From assembly GCF_001945605.1 (NCBI RefSeq), contig NZ_MPKA01000067.1, forward strand, positions 1-32,000: DNA of 32,000 nt, read 5' to 3'. Shown here one piece after another: positions 15,071 through 32,000 of this stretch. This stretch comes from Dubosiella newyorkensis. Lineage in GTDB: Bacteria; Bacillota_I; Bacilli_A; Erysipelotrichales; Erysipelotrichaceae. The notes beneath the pieces are model-generated. The model searched no databases. It saw only the letters and a list, made by a program, of their open reading frames with translations, and had not been told where the DNA came from. How positions within the stretch are numbered: position 1 is the first letter of the stretch; every line of letters begins with the position of its first letter. Position numbers and translations under genes: made by a program.

Positions 15071-16451
15071 TGGCAGTACCTCCTACGGTGATCTCTTTGA
15101 CTCTAAGTCTTGGCTGTCCTACATCGGTCGGGATCGAACCGCTGATCGAACCACACATTCCTTGGGCCCGTTCCAAATTATCTCCCACCATATCGATGTT
15201 CATCAAGATCTCTTGTCCCGTTCCGATCAAAGAAGCGCCTTTGACCGGATCGGTGATCTTTCCGTTTTCGATCATATAGCCTTCTTGCACCGCAAAATTG
15301 AATTCTCCCGTTTGAGGGTTGACGCTGCCTCCCCCCATCTTTTTGGCATATAAACCACGCTCGATCCCTTTAAGCATGTCTTCAAGAGTATCCGTGCCTG
15401 GTGCGATATACGTATTGGACATTCGAGACGTTGGCTCGTATTTATACGATTGCCGGCGGGAAGAGCCACTAGAGGCCATACCCATTCGACGGCCATTGAG
15501 CGTATCGATCATATAGCTTTTTAAGATACCATGATCGATCAAGACGCGGCGTTGTTGCGGATTGCCTTCGTCATCGATATTTTGCGAGCCCCACGCATTC
15601 GGGATCGTTCCATCATCGATGGCCGTGACTTTTTCATTGGCGATCTGTTCGCCTAGCTTGTTGGCGAAGACAGATTGATTTTTAGCCACCGCTGTCGCTT
15701 CCAAGGAATGCCCGCACGCCTCATGGAAAATGACACCGCCAAACCCATTATCGATGATGACAGGCATCTTGCCCGAAGGGCAAGGCTTGGCTTGGCTGAG
15801 GACAAGCGCGATCCGAGTGGCTTCTTTCCCGATCGAGCTAGGACTTGTCGTTTCAAAAAATTCAAGCCCCATGCTTCCTCCAGGCGAACAAGCGCCCGAC
15901 TGGAGCGTTTTTCCATCGCTTACATACGAGCTGATCGCCATACGTACCCGGTGACGATCGTCTTGGACAAGACGTCCATTCGAATTCGAGATCTGTACCT
16001 TTTGATGAACGCTCGCCAGCGAAGCCGACACTTTTTCCACCTTCTCACTCGCCTCATAAGCGGCTTGGCTTCCTTCCATTAAAAGATCCACTTTCTCTTG
16101 AAGGGGACTGGCAAGCGGATCGATACGGATCGGATGCTTGTCTTCGATCTTTTCTTCCTTCAATTGGACCTTGACACCCTCGTCTTTTGGACCTAACGCG
16201 TCCACAAGGTCGGCGATCACATTTTTGAGCGAGTCCATATCTTCAATATCCGTATAGCCATAGACAGATTGAACGCCTTTATATAAGCGGATCCCTACTC
16301 CTGAACTTTGCGAGCGGTCCACGCCCTCAACGACCTGATTGAGCATGGAAATACTTTCTTTATTCGTATCTTCTTCAAAGATTTCCGCAAAATCGGCTTC
16401 GGAGCGCATGCACAAAGTGAGCAGTTCTTCCAACTGTTCTTTTTTTAACAT
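15063..16451 (-). CDS. tldD: TldD metalloprotease
   Basis: 462 aa with zinc motif HEACGHSLEA and C-terminal GMCGSISGSIP typical of TldD. Confidence 0.9.
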   Translation of the reverse strand: MLKKEQLEELLTLCMRSEADFAEIFEEDTNKESISMLNQVVEGVDRSQSSGVGIRLYKGVQSVYGYTDIEDMDSLKNVIADLVDALGPKDEGVKVQLKEEKIEDKHPIRIDPLASPLQEKVDLLMEGSQAAYEASEKVEKVSASLASVHQKVQISNSNGRLVQDDRHRVRMAISSYVSDGKTLQSGACSPGGSMGLEFFETTSPSSIGKEATRIALVLSQAKPCPSGKMPVIIDNGFGGVIFHEACGHSLEATAVAKNQSVFANKLGEQIANEKVTAIDDGTIPNAWGSQNIDDEGNPQQRRVLIDHGILKSYMIDTLNGRRMGMASSGSSRRQSYKYEPTSRMSNTYIAPGTDTLEDMLKGIERGLYAKKMGGGSVNPQTGEFNFAVQEGYMIENGKITDPVKGASLIGTGQEILMNIDMVGDNLERAQGMCGSISGSIPTDVGQPRLRVKEITVGGTANE

Positions 16452-16473
16452 GGTTTTCCTTCTTCCTATTTTA

Positions 16474-16482
16474 TATAGAACA
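16474..16482 (-). promoter_or_regulatory. extended -10 element (TGGTATAAT) upstream of tldD
   Basis: Minus strand reads TGGTATAAT about 22 nt upstream of the tldD ATG region and downstream of the preceding terminator. No clear -35. Confidence 0.4.
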
Positions 16483-16509
16483 AATTATACCACAGAAGAA
16501 CGAAAAAAA

Positions 16510-16532
16510 AGCAGACAAGCGACTTGTCTGCT
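16510..16532 (-). terminator. intrinsic terminator after the 166-aa gene
   Basis: Minus strand: AGCAGACAAG-TCG-CTTGTCTGCT followed by TTTTTTTT. Overlaps the stop codon. Confidence 0.85.
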
Positions 16533-17031
16533 AAATCAAGATTTTCTCGAGCGTATGCCGGACGATATCGTTTACCATATTCACGCTCAGCGATTTCTGG
16601 AGCTGTTTTTCTTTTTGGCTTTGCCATTGATATAAGATCATACTGCTTTCATCTTCATAATAGGCATACAAAACGATAATATACAACGAATCGAGGATCT
16701 CGTACAATTTTGAATCTTTTTCGCAAGAGGACATGACCAAAATAAGCTGCGAACGAAGCGCTAAGATCCGAGATGAAAACGTTGTCTTTGGGGCTGAAAA
16801 ATCGATCGTCATCCCGCCTTTACCCGTGCATACGACCCCTTCCTTATCGGTGAACGAATACAATAAATCGCAATGTTGATCATCAAGATATGTATTGATC
16901 TCATTGAGCAGATCTTTCCATTGTTTCATTGCGATTTCATGCGCTTTATATTGATATTCGGCTTCTAGGCGCTGCAGTTCATCGCTCCAGTGCGAGAGGT
17001 CAAATGAATAAGTTTTTTCGTTTTTATACAT
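16531..17031 (-). CDS. hypothetical protein (166 aa)
   Basis: Long ORF with AAAGGAAAAGGAAT RBS, its own promoter and its own terminator. No recognisable motifs. Confidence 0.7.
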   Translation of the reverse strand: MYKNEKTYSFDLSHWSDELQRLEAEYQYKAHEIAMKQWKDLLNEINTYLDDQHCDLLYSFTDKEGVVCTGKGGMTIDFSAPKTTFSSRILALRSQLILVMSSCEKDSKLYEILDSLYIIVLYAYYEDESSMILYQWQSQKEKQLQKSLSVNMVNDIVRHTLEKILI

Positions 17032-26694: not shown

Positions 26695-27372
26695 TCAATC
26701 TGGTTTAAATCTATAAATATCTAAAGGTTGTCTACTCTGATCTTTCCATTCCTTCCAACCATTTATTGCTTTTCCAATTACTACCGAACCCGCCGTGGAT
26801 GGAGAATGACAAATAACATTTTGTTGCAAAATATTATTCTTAATCTGCGCATTTTTTCTGCATTCAGGCAGTCGATCCTGATCTGATGGAGCACATGTAC
26901 TTCCTTTGAGTACAATAAAATTCCCATCCTTCACTTCCATAGCGGCTTTCACCAACCCAAACCCCTTAACTTTTCGATTCAAAAAATACGTTCCTTCTGG
27001 AATATTTCCGCATTCTTCATTACTTCTTCTTTTCTTTGTGGCTTCAGTAAACACTTGTTCTTTTGTTTCCATACTTGGATAGATTTGAAGTCCTTCAAAT
27101 GACGACAAAAGCTGTATTACCAAATCTAGATCCAATGCAAAAAGCTCTGTATTTGGAACTCGACTCTTACTAAAAATATCATCCAATAAAGCCTCTTTTT
27201 CATCATAATCATTCACTTCAATCGCAAATTTTCTGCGTAATCCAGTTACATTTGAATATCCATTACGCTCTAAGTTATACATGCGTGATTCAAAATTATT
27301 TTTCCCTGTTTTTCCGATCTTAATCAATCCAGGAACAACAGTACTCATCACATAGATTATTCCTTTAGCCAT
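26695..27372 (-). CDS. T5orf172 (GIY-YIG-like) domain protein with DUF4357-like C-terminal domain
   Basis: N-terminal GIIYVMSTVVPGLIKIGKTGKNNFESRMYNL...TELFAL pattern. C-terminal FIVLKGS...SPSTAGSVVIGKAINGWKEWK pattern. AAGGAT RBS. Confidence 0.75.
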   Translation of the reverse strand: MAKGIIYVMSTVVPGLIKIGKTGKNNFESRMYNLERNGYSNVTGLRRKFAIEVNDYDEKEALLDDIFSKSRVPNTELFALDLDLVIQLLSSFEGLQIYPSMETKEQVFTEATKKRRSNEECGNIPEGTYFLNRKVKGFGLVKAAMEVKDGNFIVLKGSTCAPSDQDRLPECRKNAQIKNNILQQNVICHSPSTAGSVVIGKAINGWKEWKDQSRQPLDIYRFKPD

Positions 27373-27401
27373 ATAATTATCCTTATGTTTTGCTTTTAAA
27401 T

Positions 27402-27430
27402 ATTATATCGCACTCATAAAGCTTCATCAA
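27402..27430 (-). promoter_or_regulatory. promoter of the T5orf172 gene; its -35 lies inside the 18-bp inverted repeat
   Basis: Minus strand: TTGATG (27425-27430), 17-nt spacer, TATAAT (27402-27407). Confidence 0.5.
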
Positions 27431-27439
27431 CGTAAGTCG
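27422..27439. repeat. inverted-repeat arm L (CTTCATCAACGTAAGTCG); plus-strand relic of an hsdS 3' end (..IKLHQRKSLLKS*)
   Basis: Exact reverse complement of 28404-28421. Read on the plus strand it encodes LHQRKS, the conserved C-terminal motif of HsdS. Confidence 0.85.
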
Positions 27440-27450
27440 CTATTAAAATC

Positions 27451-28377
27451 TTAACCGAGTGTGGATAAAGATCTCATAACCAGATCTATATCCTTGTTTT
27501 CTAATTCTTGAATAATATGTATATAAGTCTTTTGGGTCGTAGTCATACTCGCATGTCCTAACCGACGTGCAACACTTGCTGTGGAAACACCCGCAAACAA
27601 TAACAATGAGGCATGAGTATGACGAAGTCCATGAATTGTAATGACTGGAATATTCGTCTCCCTGCAGTGTCTAGCCAAAACATCATTTGCTGTTGAATTA
27701 TAGATTTTCTTATTTACAAAAATCGGATCTTCTTCCGGTAAATTTTTAACTAACGTTGAAAATTGAACGACTGTTTGCCAATCAATTTGAATTTTACGAA
27801 CAGAAGAAGCATTCTTGGTAGGTAAAAAACCGCCACTTCCTTTGTAATCCCAAGTTTTTGAAACCGATATAGTTTGCCTAGAAAAATCAAAATCTTTTGG
27901 TGTAATAGCAAGAGCTTCTGAAAATCGCATTCCTGTTTTAGCTACAAGCAAAATAAACCAATCCCATGAAATTTCTTCTTTTAAATAAAGAGAGGCTATA
28001 AGAGTATGGAGTTCATATTGATTTAAGTATTTAATTTTCTTATCCCTGGGCTGTTTCCCTTTTATGATTGCTTTACGTGTTGGATCTCTTGGAATTAGAC
28101 CTTCATCAACCGCATCTAAAATAGCTCCCTTTAGCTGATGATGAAAATCCATCGTAGTTTGTTTTTCGTGATCTAGAGCATAATCATTCAAAATCTGTTG
28201 ATACGTTATTCTAGATAAATCTCCAAGATGTAAATTAGGCGCTAACTTTTTTACCCACCTCAATGACATATAATACTTATTTAATGTTACGTCACGAATA
28301 GCACCTTTCTTATAAACTTCGATCCATTTTTCAAAATATTCCCAAAACAGAATTGTATTATTAACTTCATTAATCAT
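27451..28377 (-). CDS. tyrosine site-specific recombinase (phage-integrase family, hsdS-shufflon type)
   Basis: Catalytic residues in GMRFSEALAI (R), HGLRHTHASLLL (HxxR) and LGHASMTTTQKTYIHI (H, Y). ATG 28377 has GGAG 9 nt upstream. The ORF-track ATG 28401 (ATGA overlap with the hsdS' stop) is an alternative start. Confidence 0.9.
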   Translation of the reverse strand: MINEVNNTILFWEYFEKWIEVYKKGAIRDVTLNKYYMSLRWVKKLAPNLHLGDLSRITYQQILNDYALDHEKQTTMDFHHQLKGAILDAVDEGLIPRDPTRKAIIKGKQPRDKKIKYLNQYELHTLIASLYLKEEISWDWFILLVAKTGMRFSEALAITPKDFDFSRQTISVSKTWDYKGSGGFLPTKNASSVRKIQIDWQTVVQFSTLVKNLPEEDPIFVNKKIYNSTANDVLARHCRETNIPVITIHGLRHTHASLLLFAGVSTASVARRLGHASMTTTQKTYIHIIQELENKDIDLVMRSLSTLG

Positions 28378-28403
28378 CTTTTTTTCTCCATCTTTGTTCA
28401 TAA

Positions 28404-28421
28404 CGACTTACGTTGATGAAG
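28404..28421. repeat. inverted-repeat arm R (CGACTTACGTTGATGAAG) at the 3' end of the silent hsdS cassette
   Basis: Exact reverse complement of 27422-27439. Encodes LHQRKS on the minus strand. Confidence 0.85.
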
Positions 28422-28959
28422 GGTGATAAGGTGATCGAGATAATTAAAAAAATTTCCAATCTTTCCTTGTTCCACTAGAGATTTTGGATAAGATATATAA
28501 GTTGACTTTAAAGAAGTTTTAGAAATTGAACTAACTTTAATCCCTTGTGTTAACGGGAGCAATTGATCATGATAATAAGCTGAATTTAAATAATAGCCAA
28601 GATAACGTGGCGCAAATTTACTTTGTGGTCGATAAGGAATAGTATGTAACCCAGAAATCACAATTTCTTCCGTTAATCCTTCAATTTCTGTACATTTCCC
28701 CACAGTTTCATCTTCAGCTGTATCTGCCATAACGATATCGCCATTTTTTAAAAATGATTCTTTATATTTTGAAATGATAGATTCATCTTTTATTGTTGGT
28801 AATTCCTCTTTTTTTACATTTAGTACTTCACTAAAAATAACTAATAAATCTCCATAGTGAACATTTTTAACTTTTCCTTCTCCAGACGATAGTTCAGCTC
28901 TTGAAAGAGTATTATTTTGTAAGTTTATAAATGCTTCGCCTAACCTTCGCTGTTCCCAA
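28407..28959. repeat. 553-bp direct repeat, copy 1 (TRD1 cassette)
   Basis: Same orientation as 31418-31970 (offset 3011 bp). One mismatch (28413 T vs 31424 C); 28414-28959 is identical to 31425-31970 by eye. Confidence 0.9.
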
Positions 28960-28999
28960 ACAAAAACAAAAGGAGAGCAAAAAAAATAAATTGGCTCTC
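28958..28999 (-). terminator. weak terminator-like hairpin between hsdM and the silent cassette
   Basis: Minus strand: GAGAGC-(15 nt)-GCTCTC followed by CTTTTGTTTTTGTTT. Confidence 0.4.
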
Positions 29000-29083
29000 A
29001 AATTCTCTCTTTCAATTTTTTATAACAAATTGGATTGAATTGAATCAAATTGAACAAAAAATCTATATTTTTTATATGAGTTT

Positions 29084-30697
29084 CTACTGAATTGGGGTTA
29101 ATCCTAACATTTTTAATTGTTCATTGATTTCTTTTTGAAGCTTTTGAATCTCTTCATCATCTTTAGATATTTCACGAATGACTGCTTCAAGATCAATTTC
29201 TTCTTCAGGCTCAGAAGTATCAACATATCTTGGAATGTTTAGATTATAATCATTACTCTCTATCTCAGCGTAAGTAGCTACATGTGAATACTTATCTATA
29301 TCTTCTCGATTCTTGTAAGTTTGGTAAATTTTTTCAATATTCTCTTTTGTTAAAATATTTTTGTTTTTTATTTTTTCGTACTCGTTGCTTGCATCAATAA
29401 AAAATACATCTCTAGTCTTTTTGTTACGCTTTAGAACCATAATAATGGTTGGAATACTCGTTCCATAAAACAAATTAGCTGGTAATCCAATAATAGTATC
29501 AATCAAGTTTTTCTTAATTAGATTTTCTCGAATCATTCCTTCTGCAGCACCTCTAAAAAGAACTCCATGAGGTAATACGATTGCCATAGTTCCTTCACTA
29601 TTTAGATGAAAGAGTCCGTGAAGAAGAAATGCATAGTCCGCTTTAGATTTTGGAGCAGTTCTTCCATAGTCTTTGTATCGCGGATCTTTAATCGTGCTTT
29701 CAGTTGGTTCCCATTTTGCAGAATATGGCGGATTTGCTACGACCGCATCAAATGAACGTGGATGATCGATTCCTTTTGCATCTGGTCCATCTGGCCAGTC
29801 TCTCCCCAACGTATTCGCATTACTAATATGCATATTTTGATAGTTAACACCATGCATCATTAGATTCATCCGAGCTAAGTTATATGTTGTTGTATTCATT
29901 TCTTGCCCATAATATTGAATAGCTCCCGGTTTATGACCACCTTTTAACTCATCTCCTACCGTAAGCAGCAAAGAACCTGACCCACAAGTAGGATCGTATA
30001 CAGTAAAGGCTTGCTTTTCAGCTTCTTTATCTTCTGTTACAATCTTAGCCATTACTATAGAAACTTCGTGAGGAGTATAAAACTCTCCGCCCTTTTTTCC
30101 TGCTGACGCAGCAAATTGTTGAATTAAATACTCATAAATTGATCCTAAAACATCTTTTCCAGAATCATCTTTATAAGCAATATCATTCACTAAATTTACA
30201 ATTTTATTTAACGACTTTGCACGATCAACCGTTGTCGTTCCTAATCGAGAGTCGCCTAAATTTACATCACTAAATACGCCATAAAAGTCAATCTCGGCTT
30301 CCTTATTCATTTTGGTACTCGCATTGAATTCATCAAATATTTTTTGATAATCGCTTGGAATCACCTTAGAATTATTAATTTTATCGATTAAGGATTGCCA
30401 TGTATTCTCAGGCATAATTCCATAACCAAGAGCTGAAGTTAATTCTTCCAAAAAATCTTTTCTATTTTCTTCATTATTGGCATCTTTTGCATAAGCTTCA
30501 TTAACCGTCATACCAGGTTCAACTATTATCAAGTCTTGATCAACCAAATAATTCATCTGTTTTTCTGAAAGATACCGATAAAACATAAAAGCTAAAATAT
30601 AGTTTTTATATTCAGAAGCATCCATTGTTCCACGAAGCTTATTAGCCATCTCCCAAAGAGAAGACTTGATTTCATCTAATTTTCTTTTTTCTGACAT
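29084..30697 (-). CDS. hsdM: Type I restriction-modification system methyltransferase subunit
   Basis: N-terminal HsdM_N pattern (LWEMANKLRG..YKNYILAFMFYRYLS), AdoMet motif DPTCGSGSLLL, catalytic NPPYS. Confidence 0.95.
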   Translation of the reverse strand: MSEKRKLDEIKSSLWEMANKLRGTMDASEYKNYILAFMFYRYLSEKQMNYLVDQDLIIVEPGMTVNEAYAKDANNEENRKDFLEELTSALGYGIMPENTWQSLIDKINNSKVIPSDYQKIFDEFNASTKMNKEAEIDFYGVFSDVNLGDSRLGTTTVDRAKSLNKIVNLVNDIAYKDDSGKDVLGSIYEYLIQQFAASAGKKGGEFYTPHEVSIVMAKIVTEDKEAEKQAFTVYDPTCGSGSLLLTVGDELKGGHKPGAIQYYGQEMNTTTYNLARMNLMMHGVNYQNMHISNANTLGRDWPDGPDAKGIDHPRSFDAVVANPPYSAKWEPTESTIKDPRYKDYGRTAPKSKADYAFLLHGLFHLNSEGTMAIVLPHGVLFRGAAEGMIRENLIKKNLIDTIIGLPANLFYGTSIPTIIMVLKRNKKTRDVFFIDASNEYEKIKNKNILTKENIEKIYQTYKNREDIDKYSHVATYAEIESNDYNLNIPRYVDTSEPEEEIDLEAVIREISKDDEEIQKLQKEINEQLKMLGLTPIQ

Positions 30698-30703
30698 ATT
30701 CTT

Positions 30704-30720
30704 TATCCTATTAAATAGGA
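30704..30720. promoter_or_regulatory. 17-bp perfect palindrome ATCCTATT-A-AATAGGAT just upstream of the hsdM ATG
   Basis: Lies between an AAAGGAGA SD-like sequence and the hsdM start (7 nt from the ATG). Function unknown. Confidence 0.3.
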
Positions 30721-30760
30721 TTCTCCTTTCTTTTATATCAAATTGTAATCTGCTTAATCA

Positions 30761-32000
30761 TTAAACAAACATTTGTTGTAAGAGTCCTTTTTTCAATTCT
30801 TTCAAGTGATCTAGCTTTCGCTGATGAAGGGTAATAAGATGGTCAATCTGGTTAAAAAATAAAGCGATTCTTTCTTGTTCTTGTTTTGAAGGATAAATCA
30901 TCAAATATTTCAACATTTCTTCAATCTTTAATACTCGATTTCTTCCAGCTCCTCCTGGTGAAGATAACCATAAATGATGACGAAACCGCTCATCAATAAT
31001 CACATATCGGAAAAAATCTGGAACCATATCATCGTGAAACGAGAACTGAGGGAATCGATGAGAAACAAGCTTTCCAGCATCGTTTATATCTGTAATAGCT
31101 ACAGCATGTTCCCATCCAAAAGTAATATTTACGATAAATTTTCCCTCTGCTACCCGATACATCTGGGCTGTCTCTAACTCATTCCCTTTTTTTACGTAGC
31201 TGTGAAAAGTACCTTTTGCATGACTTCTAATGCCTAAACGATTATATCCTTCATGGGGCGTATTTACAGCATCGACATATTTATCCACTATTTCTCCAAA
31301 CCTACGCTGTTCCCAATCGTTTTTGAATCCTGGGAAGCGTAACTCGGGAACTTTTTCTCCATTTTTTGGAAACATTTTTTGCAATAAGCCTTTTTTTAAC
31401 TTTTTTAGATCATCAAGCTTACGCTGATGAAGGGTGATAAGGTGATCGAGATAATTAAAAAAATTTCCAATCTTTCCTTGTTCCACTAGAGATTTTGGAT
31501 AAGATATATAAGTTGACTTTAAAGAAGTTTTAGAAATTGAACTAACTTTAATCCCTTGTGTTAACGGGAGCAATTGATCATGATAATAAGCTGAATTTAA
31601 ATAATAGCCAAGATAACGTGGCGCAAATTTACTTTGTGGTCGATAAGGAATAGTATGTAACCCAGAAATCACAATTTCTTCCGTTAATCCTTCAATTTCT
31701 GTACATTTCCCCACAGTTTCATCTTCAGCTGTATCTGCCATAACGATATCGCCATTTTTTAAAAATGATTCTTTATATTTTGAAATGATAGATTCATCTT
31801 TTATTGTTGGTAATTCCTCTTTTTTTACATTTAGTACTTCACTAAAAATAACTAATAAATCTCCATAGTGAACATTTTTAACTTTTCCTTCTCCAGACGA
31901 TAGTTCAGCTCTTGAAAGAGTATTATTTTGTAAGTTTATAAATGCTTCGCCTAACCTTCGCTGTTCCCAAGGTTCCGTAAATCCAGGGAATCTCAACTTA
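30761..32000 (-). CDS. hsdS: Type I R-M specificity subunit, two TRDs (5' end at or beyond the window edge)
   Basis: Two TRDs, each preceded by RFPGF..WEQRR and followed by HLITLHQRKLD..LKKGLLQ.MF. The ORF-track start at 31996 is a TTG and the frame is still open at base 32000. Confidence 0.9.
   Translation of the reverse strand, partial: KLRFPGFTEPWEQRRLGEAFINLQNNTLSRAELSSGEGKVKNVHYGDLLVIFSEVLNVKKEELPTIKDESIISKYKESFLKNGDIVMADTAEDETVGKCTEIEGLTEEIVISGLHTIPYRPQSKFAPRYLGYYLNSAYYHDQLLPLTQGIKVSSISKTSLKSTYISYPKSLVEQGKIGNFFNYLDHLITLHQRKLDDLKKLKKGLLQKMFPKNGEKVPELRFPGFKNDWEQRRFGEIVDKYVDAVNTPHEGYNRLGIRSHAKGTFHSYVKKGNELETAQMYRVAEGKFIVNITFGWEHAVAITDINDAGKLVSHRFPQFSFHDDMVPDFFRYVIIDERFRHHLWLSSPGGAGRNRVLKIEEMLKYLMIYPSKQEQERIALFFNQIDHLITLHQRKLDHLKELKKGLLQQMFV
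31418..31970. repeat. 553-bp direct repeat, copy 2 (TRD1 of the expressed hsdS)
   Basis: See copy 1. Boundaries coincide with the WEQRR-coding core (CGCTGTTCCCAA) and the LHQRK-coding core (CTTACGCTGATGAAG). Confidence 0.9.

Follow-up and report, generated by a model that had tools for sequence, protein, structure and literature searches.

Inverted copies of an hsdS core sequence enclose the tyrosine recombinase gene of a Type I locus in Dubosiella newyorkensis

Genes and core sites of the locus

The stretch of DNA analyzed here, called the window throughout, comprises 32,000 nucleotides of Dubosiella newyorkensis (assembly GCF_001945605.1, contig NZ_MPKA01000067.1, positions 1 to 32,000 of the forward strand). 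Its last part belongs to a Type I locus with the order hsdR-hsdS-hsdM, a start-less TRD cassette, the gene of a tyrosine recombinase (int) and an inverted stub of 34 nt. The genes of this locus that lie in the window (hsdS, hsdM, the cassette and int) are all on the minus strand. The full-length hsdS (30761..32000), which we take as the expressed copy, has its first 16 codons past the window end. A look-up of the hsdS product of the window returned no entry. As a proxy for the sequence beyond position 32000 we used a contig of the same species (L097) that is 100% identical over 32000-31303. It carries the full N-terminus of hsdS and, directly upstream, hsdR, which places hsdR just past the end of the window; no further copies of the core sequence described below were found upstream of hsdR in this contig. 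Next to hsdS lies hsdM (29084..30697), which matches PF02384/PF12161 and TIGR00497. It is followed by the silent cassette (28398..28964), a start-less PF01420 element that ends on LHQRKSL and a stop codon. The names in the protein cluster of this cassette likewise give D. newyorkensis. Cassette and hsdS share an exact direct repeat of 546 bp on the minus strand (28414..28959 equals 31425-31970), bounded by TTGGGAACAGCG (WEQR) and CTTCATCA (LHQ), so that the same domain, TRD-A, occupies both the silent slot and position 1 of the full-length hsdS.

The int gene (27451..28377, minus strand) encodes a tyrosine recombinase of 308 amino acids counted from M9 (PF00589, E=3e-20). It has the motifs TGMR, HGLRH, LGH and TYIH, corresponding to the R/HxxR/H/Y signature. 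The open reading frame runs from 28401 to 27451 and offers an alternative ATG at 28401, but M9 at 28377 is the likelier start because it is preceded by GGAG, homologues are called at 308 amino acids and tblastn matches begin at residue 9. This putative ribosome-binding site (28386..28389, minus strand) aligns with GGAGG in relatives. An NCBIfam search of Int gave generic Xer-like matches only, all below the cut-off, and hence no finer family name from that source. Directly downstream of the stub follows a DUF4357/T5orf172-type gene (26695..27372, minus strand), which is outside the conserved module; no DUF4357 homologue adjoins int in the other loci.

A core that encodes QRK, A(T/A)CAGCGTAAG, flanks each TRD in this hsdS family. 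On the 5' side of a TRD stands the W site, TTGGGAACAGCG(T/A)A(G/A)G, encoding WEQRK, and on the 3' side the H site, CTTCATCAGCG(T/A)AAG, encoding LHQRK; the two have A(A/T)CAGCGTAAG in common. In hsdS these direct cores are W1 (31955-31969), H1 (31418-31432), W2 (31301-31315) and H2 (30815-30829), while the silent cassette consists of a W core (28944-28958), TRD-A and an H core (28407-28421).

The int gene itself is enclosed by two inverted copies of this core. The right arm (28404..28421, minus strand) is of the H type, carries the LHQRKS codons and forms the 3' end of the silent cassette. It lies 2 nt from the first ATG of the int reading frame and 26 nt from the likely start. The left arm (27422..27439, plus strand, CTTCATCAACGTAAGTCG) is a perfect 18-bp copy and the sole inverted core of the locus: the reverse complement of 28404-28421 is identical to it at 18/18 positions. 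Continued inward, the match reaches 22 bp at the cost of a single mismatch, and the two sides are 82% complementary over 34 nt (27413-27446 against 28397-28430). The 964 bp between the arms (27440-28403) hold int and its ribosome-binding site only. The left arm is part of the stub (27413-27446, plus strand), 34 nt left from an inverted hsdS 3' end. Here an open reading frame (27377..27454, plus strand) ends on ..YYIALIKLHQRKSLLKS (also written ..LIKLHQRKSLLKS) and a stop; it converges with int, and its stop codon (27452-27454) overlaps that of int (27451-27453).

A preliminary description of this DNA had claimed a perfect 18-bp inverted repeat, extending to 22 bp with one mismatch, around 964 bp with the whole recombinase coding sequence and its ribosome-binding site. 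Each of these claims proved exact. Its derivation of the arms from the hsdS LHQRK core is supported. The right arm is indeed the 3' end of the silent hsdS cassette, which is start-less and closes with ..LITLHQRKSL. The near-copies it had placed in the expressed hsdS are there as well (31418-31432 with one mismatch, 30815-30829 with two), both in the orientation opposite to the left arm.

No other exact inverted repeat in the 32,000 nt, with arms up to 3 kb apart, is as long, and in 100 dinucleotide shuffles, where the longest inverted repeat measured 12-17, a length of 18 was never reached. When up to two mismatches are allowed, four copies of the 15-nt core are found where 0.06 would be expected: one on the plus strand (27422) and three on the minus strand (28407, 30815 and 31418). 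A further inverted core within hsdM (29264-29274) came into question as a partner, but it is missing from the listing of a related locus (L059) and was taken as chance.

A scan for promoters and terminators found its best site of the region, a 10/12 match to the consensus, at 27402..27430 on the minus strand; it faces the DUF4357 gene, and its -35 element, TTGATG, sits within the left arm. On the plus strand the scan found no promoter-like site facing the left arm. The nine sites in total compare with 12.1 in shuffled sequences, and since this count is not above the shuffles, the scan gives nothing firm on orientation-dependent expression. The right arm and the likely start of int are only 26 nt apart, so that any promoter of int must lie outside the enclosed segment. 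It is therefore reasonable to suppose that flipping out of hsd read-through would silence int.

The enclosed recombinase gene in related loci

Is this arrangement an oddity of one genome? The preliminary description had treated it as a peculiarity, with repeats otherwise flanking TRD cassettes, but in this recombinase subfamily it is the rule. Relatives of Int at 73-79% identity occur in more than 532 genome loci, mostly of gut Firmicutes, and 59 of the 73 fetched loci with enough flank carry inverted cores tightly around int. A bracket was called where TCA(A/G)CG(T/C)(A/G)(A/G)G is found inverted 0-8 nt before the extrapolated start of the reading frame and 10-35 nt after its stop; elsewhere this motif has a density of 8.8e-5 per nt. 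By the nature of their upstream and downstream arms, the brackets divide into 37 stub/stub, nine cassette/stub (the window among them), five cassette/cassette and two stub/cassette loci, and the remaining six lost one arm at a contig end. In the literature searched we came across no account of a repeat pair enclosing the recombinase gene alone and kept as stubs.

The relatives form a graded series from full inverted cassettes down to short stubs. In five loci (L016, L034, L052, L053 and L062) a full inverted half-cassette stands at the position of the left arm, which identifies that arm as the remnant of an inverted hsdS 3' end and bears out the relic proposed earlier. In the downstream stubs only ATCAgCGTAAG(c/t)a.tt is kept, while the flanks are decayed or diverged. 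The two arms of a locus also co-vary. Around the core end (-2 and +1 to +3), 232 matches were counted against 174 +/- 8 in 2000 shuffled pairings (maximum 203), and for loci with a stub as upstream arm the count was 149 against 121 +/- 7. This co-variation could also arise from repeated re-creation of the stub instead of selection for pairing.

A second, paralogous locus of D. newyorkensis provides an informative comparison. It has the order hsdM-hsdS-Fic-hsdR-cassette-cassette-int, and its recombinase gene is 86.7% identical to that of the window. Both of its int-flanking arms are changed to TCAGTATAAGTCGC (14/14), whereas its internal H sites retain CAGCGTAAG or CAGTGTAAG. The three substitutions are thus common to both arms and missing from the internal sites, making the arms a private pair. 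Tyrosine recombinases require identical overlap regions in their partner sites, so private and co-varying arms are the expected look of a maintained pair. Taken together, the conservation across the family, the co-variation and the private variants in the paralogue make the core-int-inverted core pair look like a real recombinase substrate; most likely the arms are a maintained and functional pair of sites.

Known systems support the assignment of the core. In Enterococcus faecalis Efa4125I/EfaH25I, with the locus order hsdR-hsdM-hsdSA-efiA-hsdSB, hsdS inversion was located experimentally at ATCACTCTTCATCAGCGTAAGT... (also given as ATCACTCTTCATCAGCGTAAGTTAGAACAG) and TGGGAACAGTGTAAG (Huang et al. 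2020, PMC7672463). The counterparts in the window are ATCACCCTTCATCAACGTAAGT and TGGGAACAGCGAAGG. A relative of Int with 57% identity lies between inverted hsdS genes in L. ultunensis (NZ_CP059830), of which an hsdS (15345-16556) is listed under long-read confirmation of predicted programmed inversions (PMC9881135). The closest relatives in a plasmid collection come from Enterococcus raffinosus (65.7%) and Listeria innocua (64.8%), the latter with the layout hsdS-int-inverted-hsdS. In view of these parallels in E. faecalis, L. ultunensis and Listeria innocua, the arms are best read as copies of the recognition core of this family and not as a chance palindrome. An IS-like mobile element, that is, a recombinase with terminal inverted repeats, was also considered and rejected: the module is always found at hsdS or hsdR ends, its arms consist of hsdS codons, and target duplications are missing.

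TRD reassortment and the orientation of int

Among contigs of the species with identical HsdM, the TRDs between the cores differ. Position 2 of hsdS holds TRD-B in the window and in L102, another TRD in L097, L098 and L105, and TRD-A in L100, L101, L103 and L104. The silent slot holds TRD-A in the window, L097, L098, L102 and L105, TRD-B in L106, and two other cassettes in L100 and L101. Both TRD-A and TRD-B are thus found in the full-length hsdS as well as in the silent slot, and both also occur in the paralogous locus, there with several H-site junctions and deletion derivatives. The segments are bounded by direct W and H cores, sit in different slots in different contigs, and have their junctions inside the cores. 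L100 is a case in point: there the sequence to the left of W2 passes into the beginning of TRD-A within AACAGCGTAGG|TTAGG. One contig (L099) reads repeat-hsdM-repeat with both TRD2 alleles, which could stem from a circular molecule, from mixed strains or from a loop in the assembly. Because TRDs vary between cores among contigs with identical HsdM, the locus is a working TRD shufflon despite cassettes that are all direct. Likely routes, we infer, are excision and reintegration or an exchange of cassettes between sister chromosomes, and this second route would also account for the identical TRD-A in two slots.

Can we also see int in the other orientation? In D. newyorkensis, some 60 contigs from many samples, covering both loci, show one orientation only. 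Contigs that carry the int or hsdM of the window locus agree with the window, as do its DUF4357 surroundings, where int 3' end, stub and DUF4357 follow each other as in the window in 8/8 places listed (24 contigs with the exact protein), and 16 contigs of the paralogue (13 + 3) share one int orientation; collapsing of similar places in the contig data could hide strand changes in such counts. Logan contigs (public short-read assemblies, k=31) run continuously through either arm. A break of such contigs at 28327 was dismissed as a recombination junction, as it lies k-1 = 30 nt from the end of a 41-nt stretch (28338-28298) that is identical between the int paralogues. No flipped configuration was found in any public D. 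newyorkensis assembly examined, assemblies showing the majority state only.

The flipped state would have the junction ..GCACTCATAAAG-core-TTATGAACAAAGATGG, with a cassette reading frame ending in ..SLLKS, and in the paralogue one ending in ..YKSLFLLLAQSR. An exact look-up in a collection of 15 billion proteins returned neither of these flip-state products, while their native counterparts are present on 4-19 contigs. A scan of metagenome contigs for the exact 18-mer gave 11 matches, all in unrelated contexts with 32-61% GC, and is uninformative on an alternative orientation.

Between species, 55 of 57 loci with hsdR have int co-directional with it, and two have it flipped. In L057, hsdR ends 57 nt away from the 3' end of int, whereas in 55 other loci hsdR is followed by a co-directional int. 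Loci L059 and L038 have the window-like order hsdR-hsdS-hsdM-cassette with a convergent int. Flips of int alone do exist between species, but they are rare. In D. newyorkensis, the orientation of int is fixed or very strongly biased, co-directional with hsdR/hsdM. The working flip switch envisaged in the preliminary description thus finds no support, with the same orientation in all contigs shown of both loci and with flip-state proteins absent where native ones are present. A fast, balanced or frequent switch is not supported; rare flipping of int in this species may occur.

A probable partner pair for the recombinase and its meaning

How does the locus compare with described phase-variable systems? 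The E. faecalis inverton likewise combines a Type I locus with a tyrosine invertase gene after hsdS, and its two cores (…CTTCATCAGCGTAAGT… and TGGGAACAGTGTAAG) are the H and W cores of the window. Invertase genes may lie inside or outside an inverton, and that of E. faecalis lies inside the invertible segment (PMC7672463), just as int lies between its two arms here. In E. faecalis, however, the repeats are within two full inverted hsdS genes and TRDs travel with the inversion, whereas in the window the TRD-bearing copies are all direct, with a 34-nt stub as inverted partner, and int is alone in the segment. The cod/ivr locus of Streptococcus pneumoniae (SpnIII) also uses a 15-bp inverted repeat in hsdS ends, a specific PsrA-dependent substrate (PMC4948785), and its recombinase gene (PsrA/CreX) sits between copies of hsdS and moves with some of the inversions (PMC7672463). 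Yet every SpnIII inversion exchanges TRDs and no repeat pair surrounds psrA alone. PsrA itself has no significant sequence homology to other invertase clades, the one of E. faecalis included (PMC7672463). Closer to the direct cassettes of the window is SpnIV/tvr, where a tyrosine recombinase encoded in the locus reshuffles TRD segments that lie between direct repeats (Kwun et al. 2018, PMC6265443). The tvr recombinase gene, however, is on the excised circle, whereas int lies outside all direct-core segments, downstream of the last direct core (H3), which makes the fit to this excision type only partial.

With its three Type I genes (hsdM, hsdS and hsdR) together, a cassette besides the full hsdS, and an invertase homologue, the locus shares several features of the invertons, but its TRDs are not inside inverted repeats, the W and H cores of hsdS and cassette being all on the same strand. 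The locus behaves like a phase-variable Type I system that lacks the defining inverton feature. In its layout, with short inverted recombination sites on either side of a recombinase gene of about 1 kb, the bracket also recalls the Salmonella H-segment. There hin, encoding a serine recombinase, lies within its own invertible segment of about 1 kb between 26-bp hix sites, and the outward promoter for fljBA is the point of that switch. Unlike Hin, the window enzyme is a tyrosine recombinase, and no conserved gene is placed under outward control, the downstream genes being variable (DUF4357, DUF1643 and others).

We consider it rather probable that the inverted repeat is the cognate core site pair of the locus-encoded tyrosine recombinase, in a Type I locus that shuffles TRDs. 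The conserved module consists of a core, about 25 nt with the ribosome-binding site, int, 10-35 nt and an inverted core, and probably descends from an hsdS-int-inverted-hsdS arrangement. In the window the distal cassette has shrunk to the 34-nt stub, with the core kept in perfect match to the proximal arm. If the two arms are a maintained partner pair, the recombinase could in principle invert its own 964-bp gene segment. Such a flip would affect no more than the direction of int with respect to hsd read-through and the last codons of the silent cassette. The specificity changes seen in the species come from TRD exchange at W and H cores between directly oriented slots.

Three other accounts of the repeat have to be weighed. 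That Int often inverts its own gene, with an ON state by read-through and a promoter-less, convergent OFF state that gates shuffling, is in our judgment unlikely. A perfect partner pair around int and its ribosome-binding site alone, a right arm so close to the likely start that any promoter is outside the segment, the lack of a plus-strand promoter-like site toward the left arm in the region scanned, a conserved bracket with co-varying arms and the rare flipped loci of other species would all suit such a self-regulating switch. What speaks against it is the count of orientations: no flipped state among the roughly 60 contigs of the two D. newyorkensis loci, no flip products in the protein collection and a cross-species bias of 55:2, although a locked OFF state should accumulate and not be rare.

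The opposite extreme would be an inert relic, the left arm being the undecayed end of a deleted inverted hsdS cassette without a role, and Int acting only within hsdS. The stub does read as an hsdS C-terminus, relatives are graded from full inverted cassettes to short stubs, the flipped orientation is never seen in the species, and the overlap of the arm with a promoter-like -35 might impose a local constraint. This constraint, tied to the DUF4357 gene, cannot account for the bracket in other loci, and an invariant 11-nt core amid diverged flanks in 37 stub/stub loci, the co-variation of arms within loci and the three substitutions of the paralogue that are common to its arms and not to its internal sites leave an inert stub quite improbable. 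Finally, the stub might serve as a pivot for large inversions with H1 or H2 that flip hsdM, cassette and int, giving a whole-system ON/OFF change or TRD exchange in several steps. Such larger inversions through hsdM, raised in the preliminary description, could draw on the stub as the only inverted core, on the near-copies H1 and H2, on CTTCATCA being common to all four cores, and on the many relatives that have direct cassettes throughout and no inverted site other than the downstream stub. H1 and H2, however, depart from the stub sequence in the CAR position and in +1 to +3 (CTT/CTA against TCG), where true partners co-vary. The predicted truncated HsdS (…LHQRKSLLKS) is absent from the protein collection, in which exact look-up found no H1xstub or H2xstub chimera on record, and the flanking hsdS part and the cassette are co-oriented in every contig with this hsdM. 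We regard a pivot of this kind as very improbable.

What would a cognate site pair around int mean? Phase-variable Type I systems reset the methylome and the phage resistance of whole populations, and to our knowledge the control of their recombinases is known for only a few pathogens. Were the bracket maintained as a relic only, the locus would be ordinary within a known class. If it is functional, it would define a minimal recognition core of about 11-14 bp, A(T/A)CAGCGTAAG plus three private bases, for a recombinase family widespread in gut commensals, and would add a control layer on the recombinase gene itself. It would also explain how two paralogous shufflons coexist in one genome without cross-recombination. 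A bolder extension, which we offer tentatively and hold to be doubtful, sees in core-int-inverted core an autonomous, recombinase-only inverton present in hundreds of Type I loci of gut bacteria, which would gate shuffling by turning its promoter-less gene out of the hsd transcription unit and whose private, co-evolving arms would insulate paralogous shufflons in one genome from each other. A locus with direct cassettes only still reassorts its TRDs, and surveys that search for inverted repeats inside hsdS would miss such loci.

Exchange of TRDs between directly oriented slots

When the contigs whose HsdM is identical to that of the window (L097-L106) are compared with window 28400-32000, the TRDs are seen to vary from sample to sample between the W core and the H core, the WEQRK-coding 5' and LHQRK-coding 3' boundary sites of each TRD. 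Across these contigs and the window, both the silent slot and the full-length hsdS occur with the allele TRD-A and with the allele TRD-B, and L100 and L101 carry two different silent cassettes. This variation is evidence that TRDs are reassorted among slots in direct orientation. A 188-aa half-HsdS-like ORF, located past the window end in L097 (4861-5427), upstream of hsdR and overlapping its start, contains neither W nor H cores and apparently lies outside the shuffling set.

The direct repeat flanking hsdM

Within the window TRD-A is present twice, in the silent slot and in position 1 of hsdS. These are the copies of a 546-bp exact direct repeat (28414-28959 and 31425-31970) that flank hsdM, and recombination between them would remove 3011 bp, including hsdM, by deletion or excision. 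The 4213-bp contig L099 (GCA_948596625.1) follows the path TRD-A, alternative TRD2, hsdM, TRD-A, window-type TRD2. This path has several possible readings: an excised circle or tandem form, a population of mixed composition, or a loop made by the assembler via the 546-bp repeat.

Inverted cores and a promoter-like site

Many relatives (L017, L023, L025, L044, L066, L078, L082 and similar loci) share the layout hsdM-hsdS-(small ORFs and half cassettes, all direct)-hsdR-stub-int-stub, in which the sole inverted core is the stub downstream of int. The window holds an extra inverted copy, CTCAGCGTAAG (29264-29274, plus strand), antisense in the 3' part of hsdM. As the related L059 locus has no inverted core at the matching place, this copy is probably a chance occurrence. 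Among the promoter-like sites of the region the best is TTGATG-17-TATAAT (27402-27430, minus strand), which has its -35 element within the left arm and would drive the DUF4357/T5orf172 gene.

A second shufflon in D. newyorkensis

A paralogous shufflon (L115-L122) has the gene order hsdM(848 aa)-hsdS-Fic-hsdR-cassette-cassette-int. Thirteen contigs, drawn from several samples, carry a deletion derivative of it, hsdM-[N-terminus+TRD-A]-int, which has lost hsdR. TRD-A and TRD-B are common to both loci. The two int paralogues are identical over 41 nt (window 28298-28338), which is why many Logan contigs (public short-read assemblies, k=31) begin at 28327. The shared stretch also shows that the two loci are present together within the same samples.
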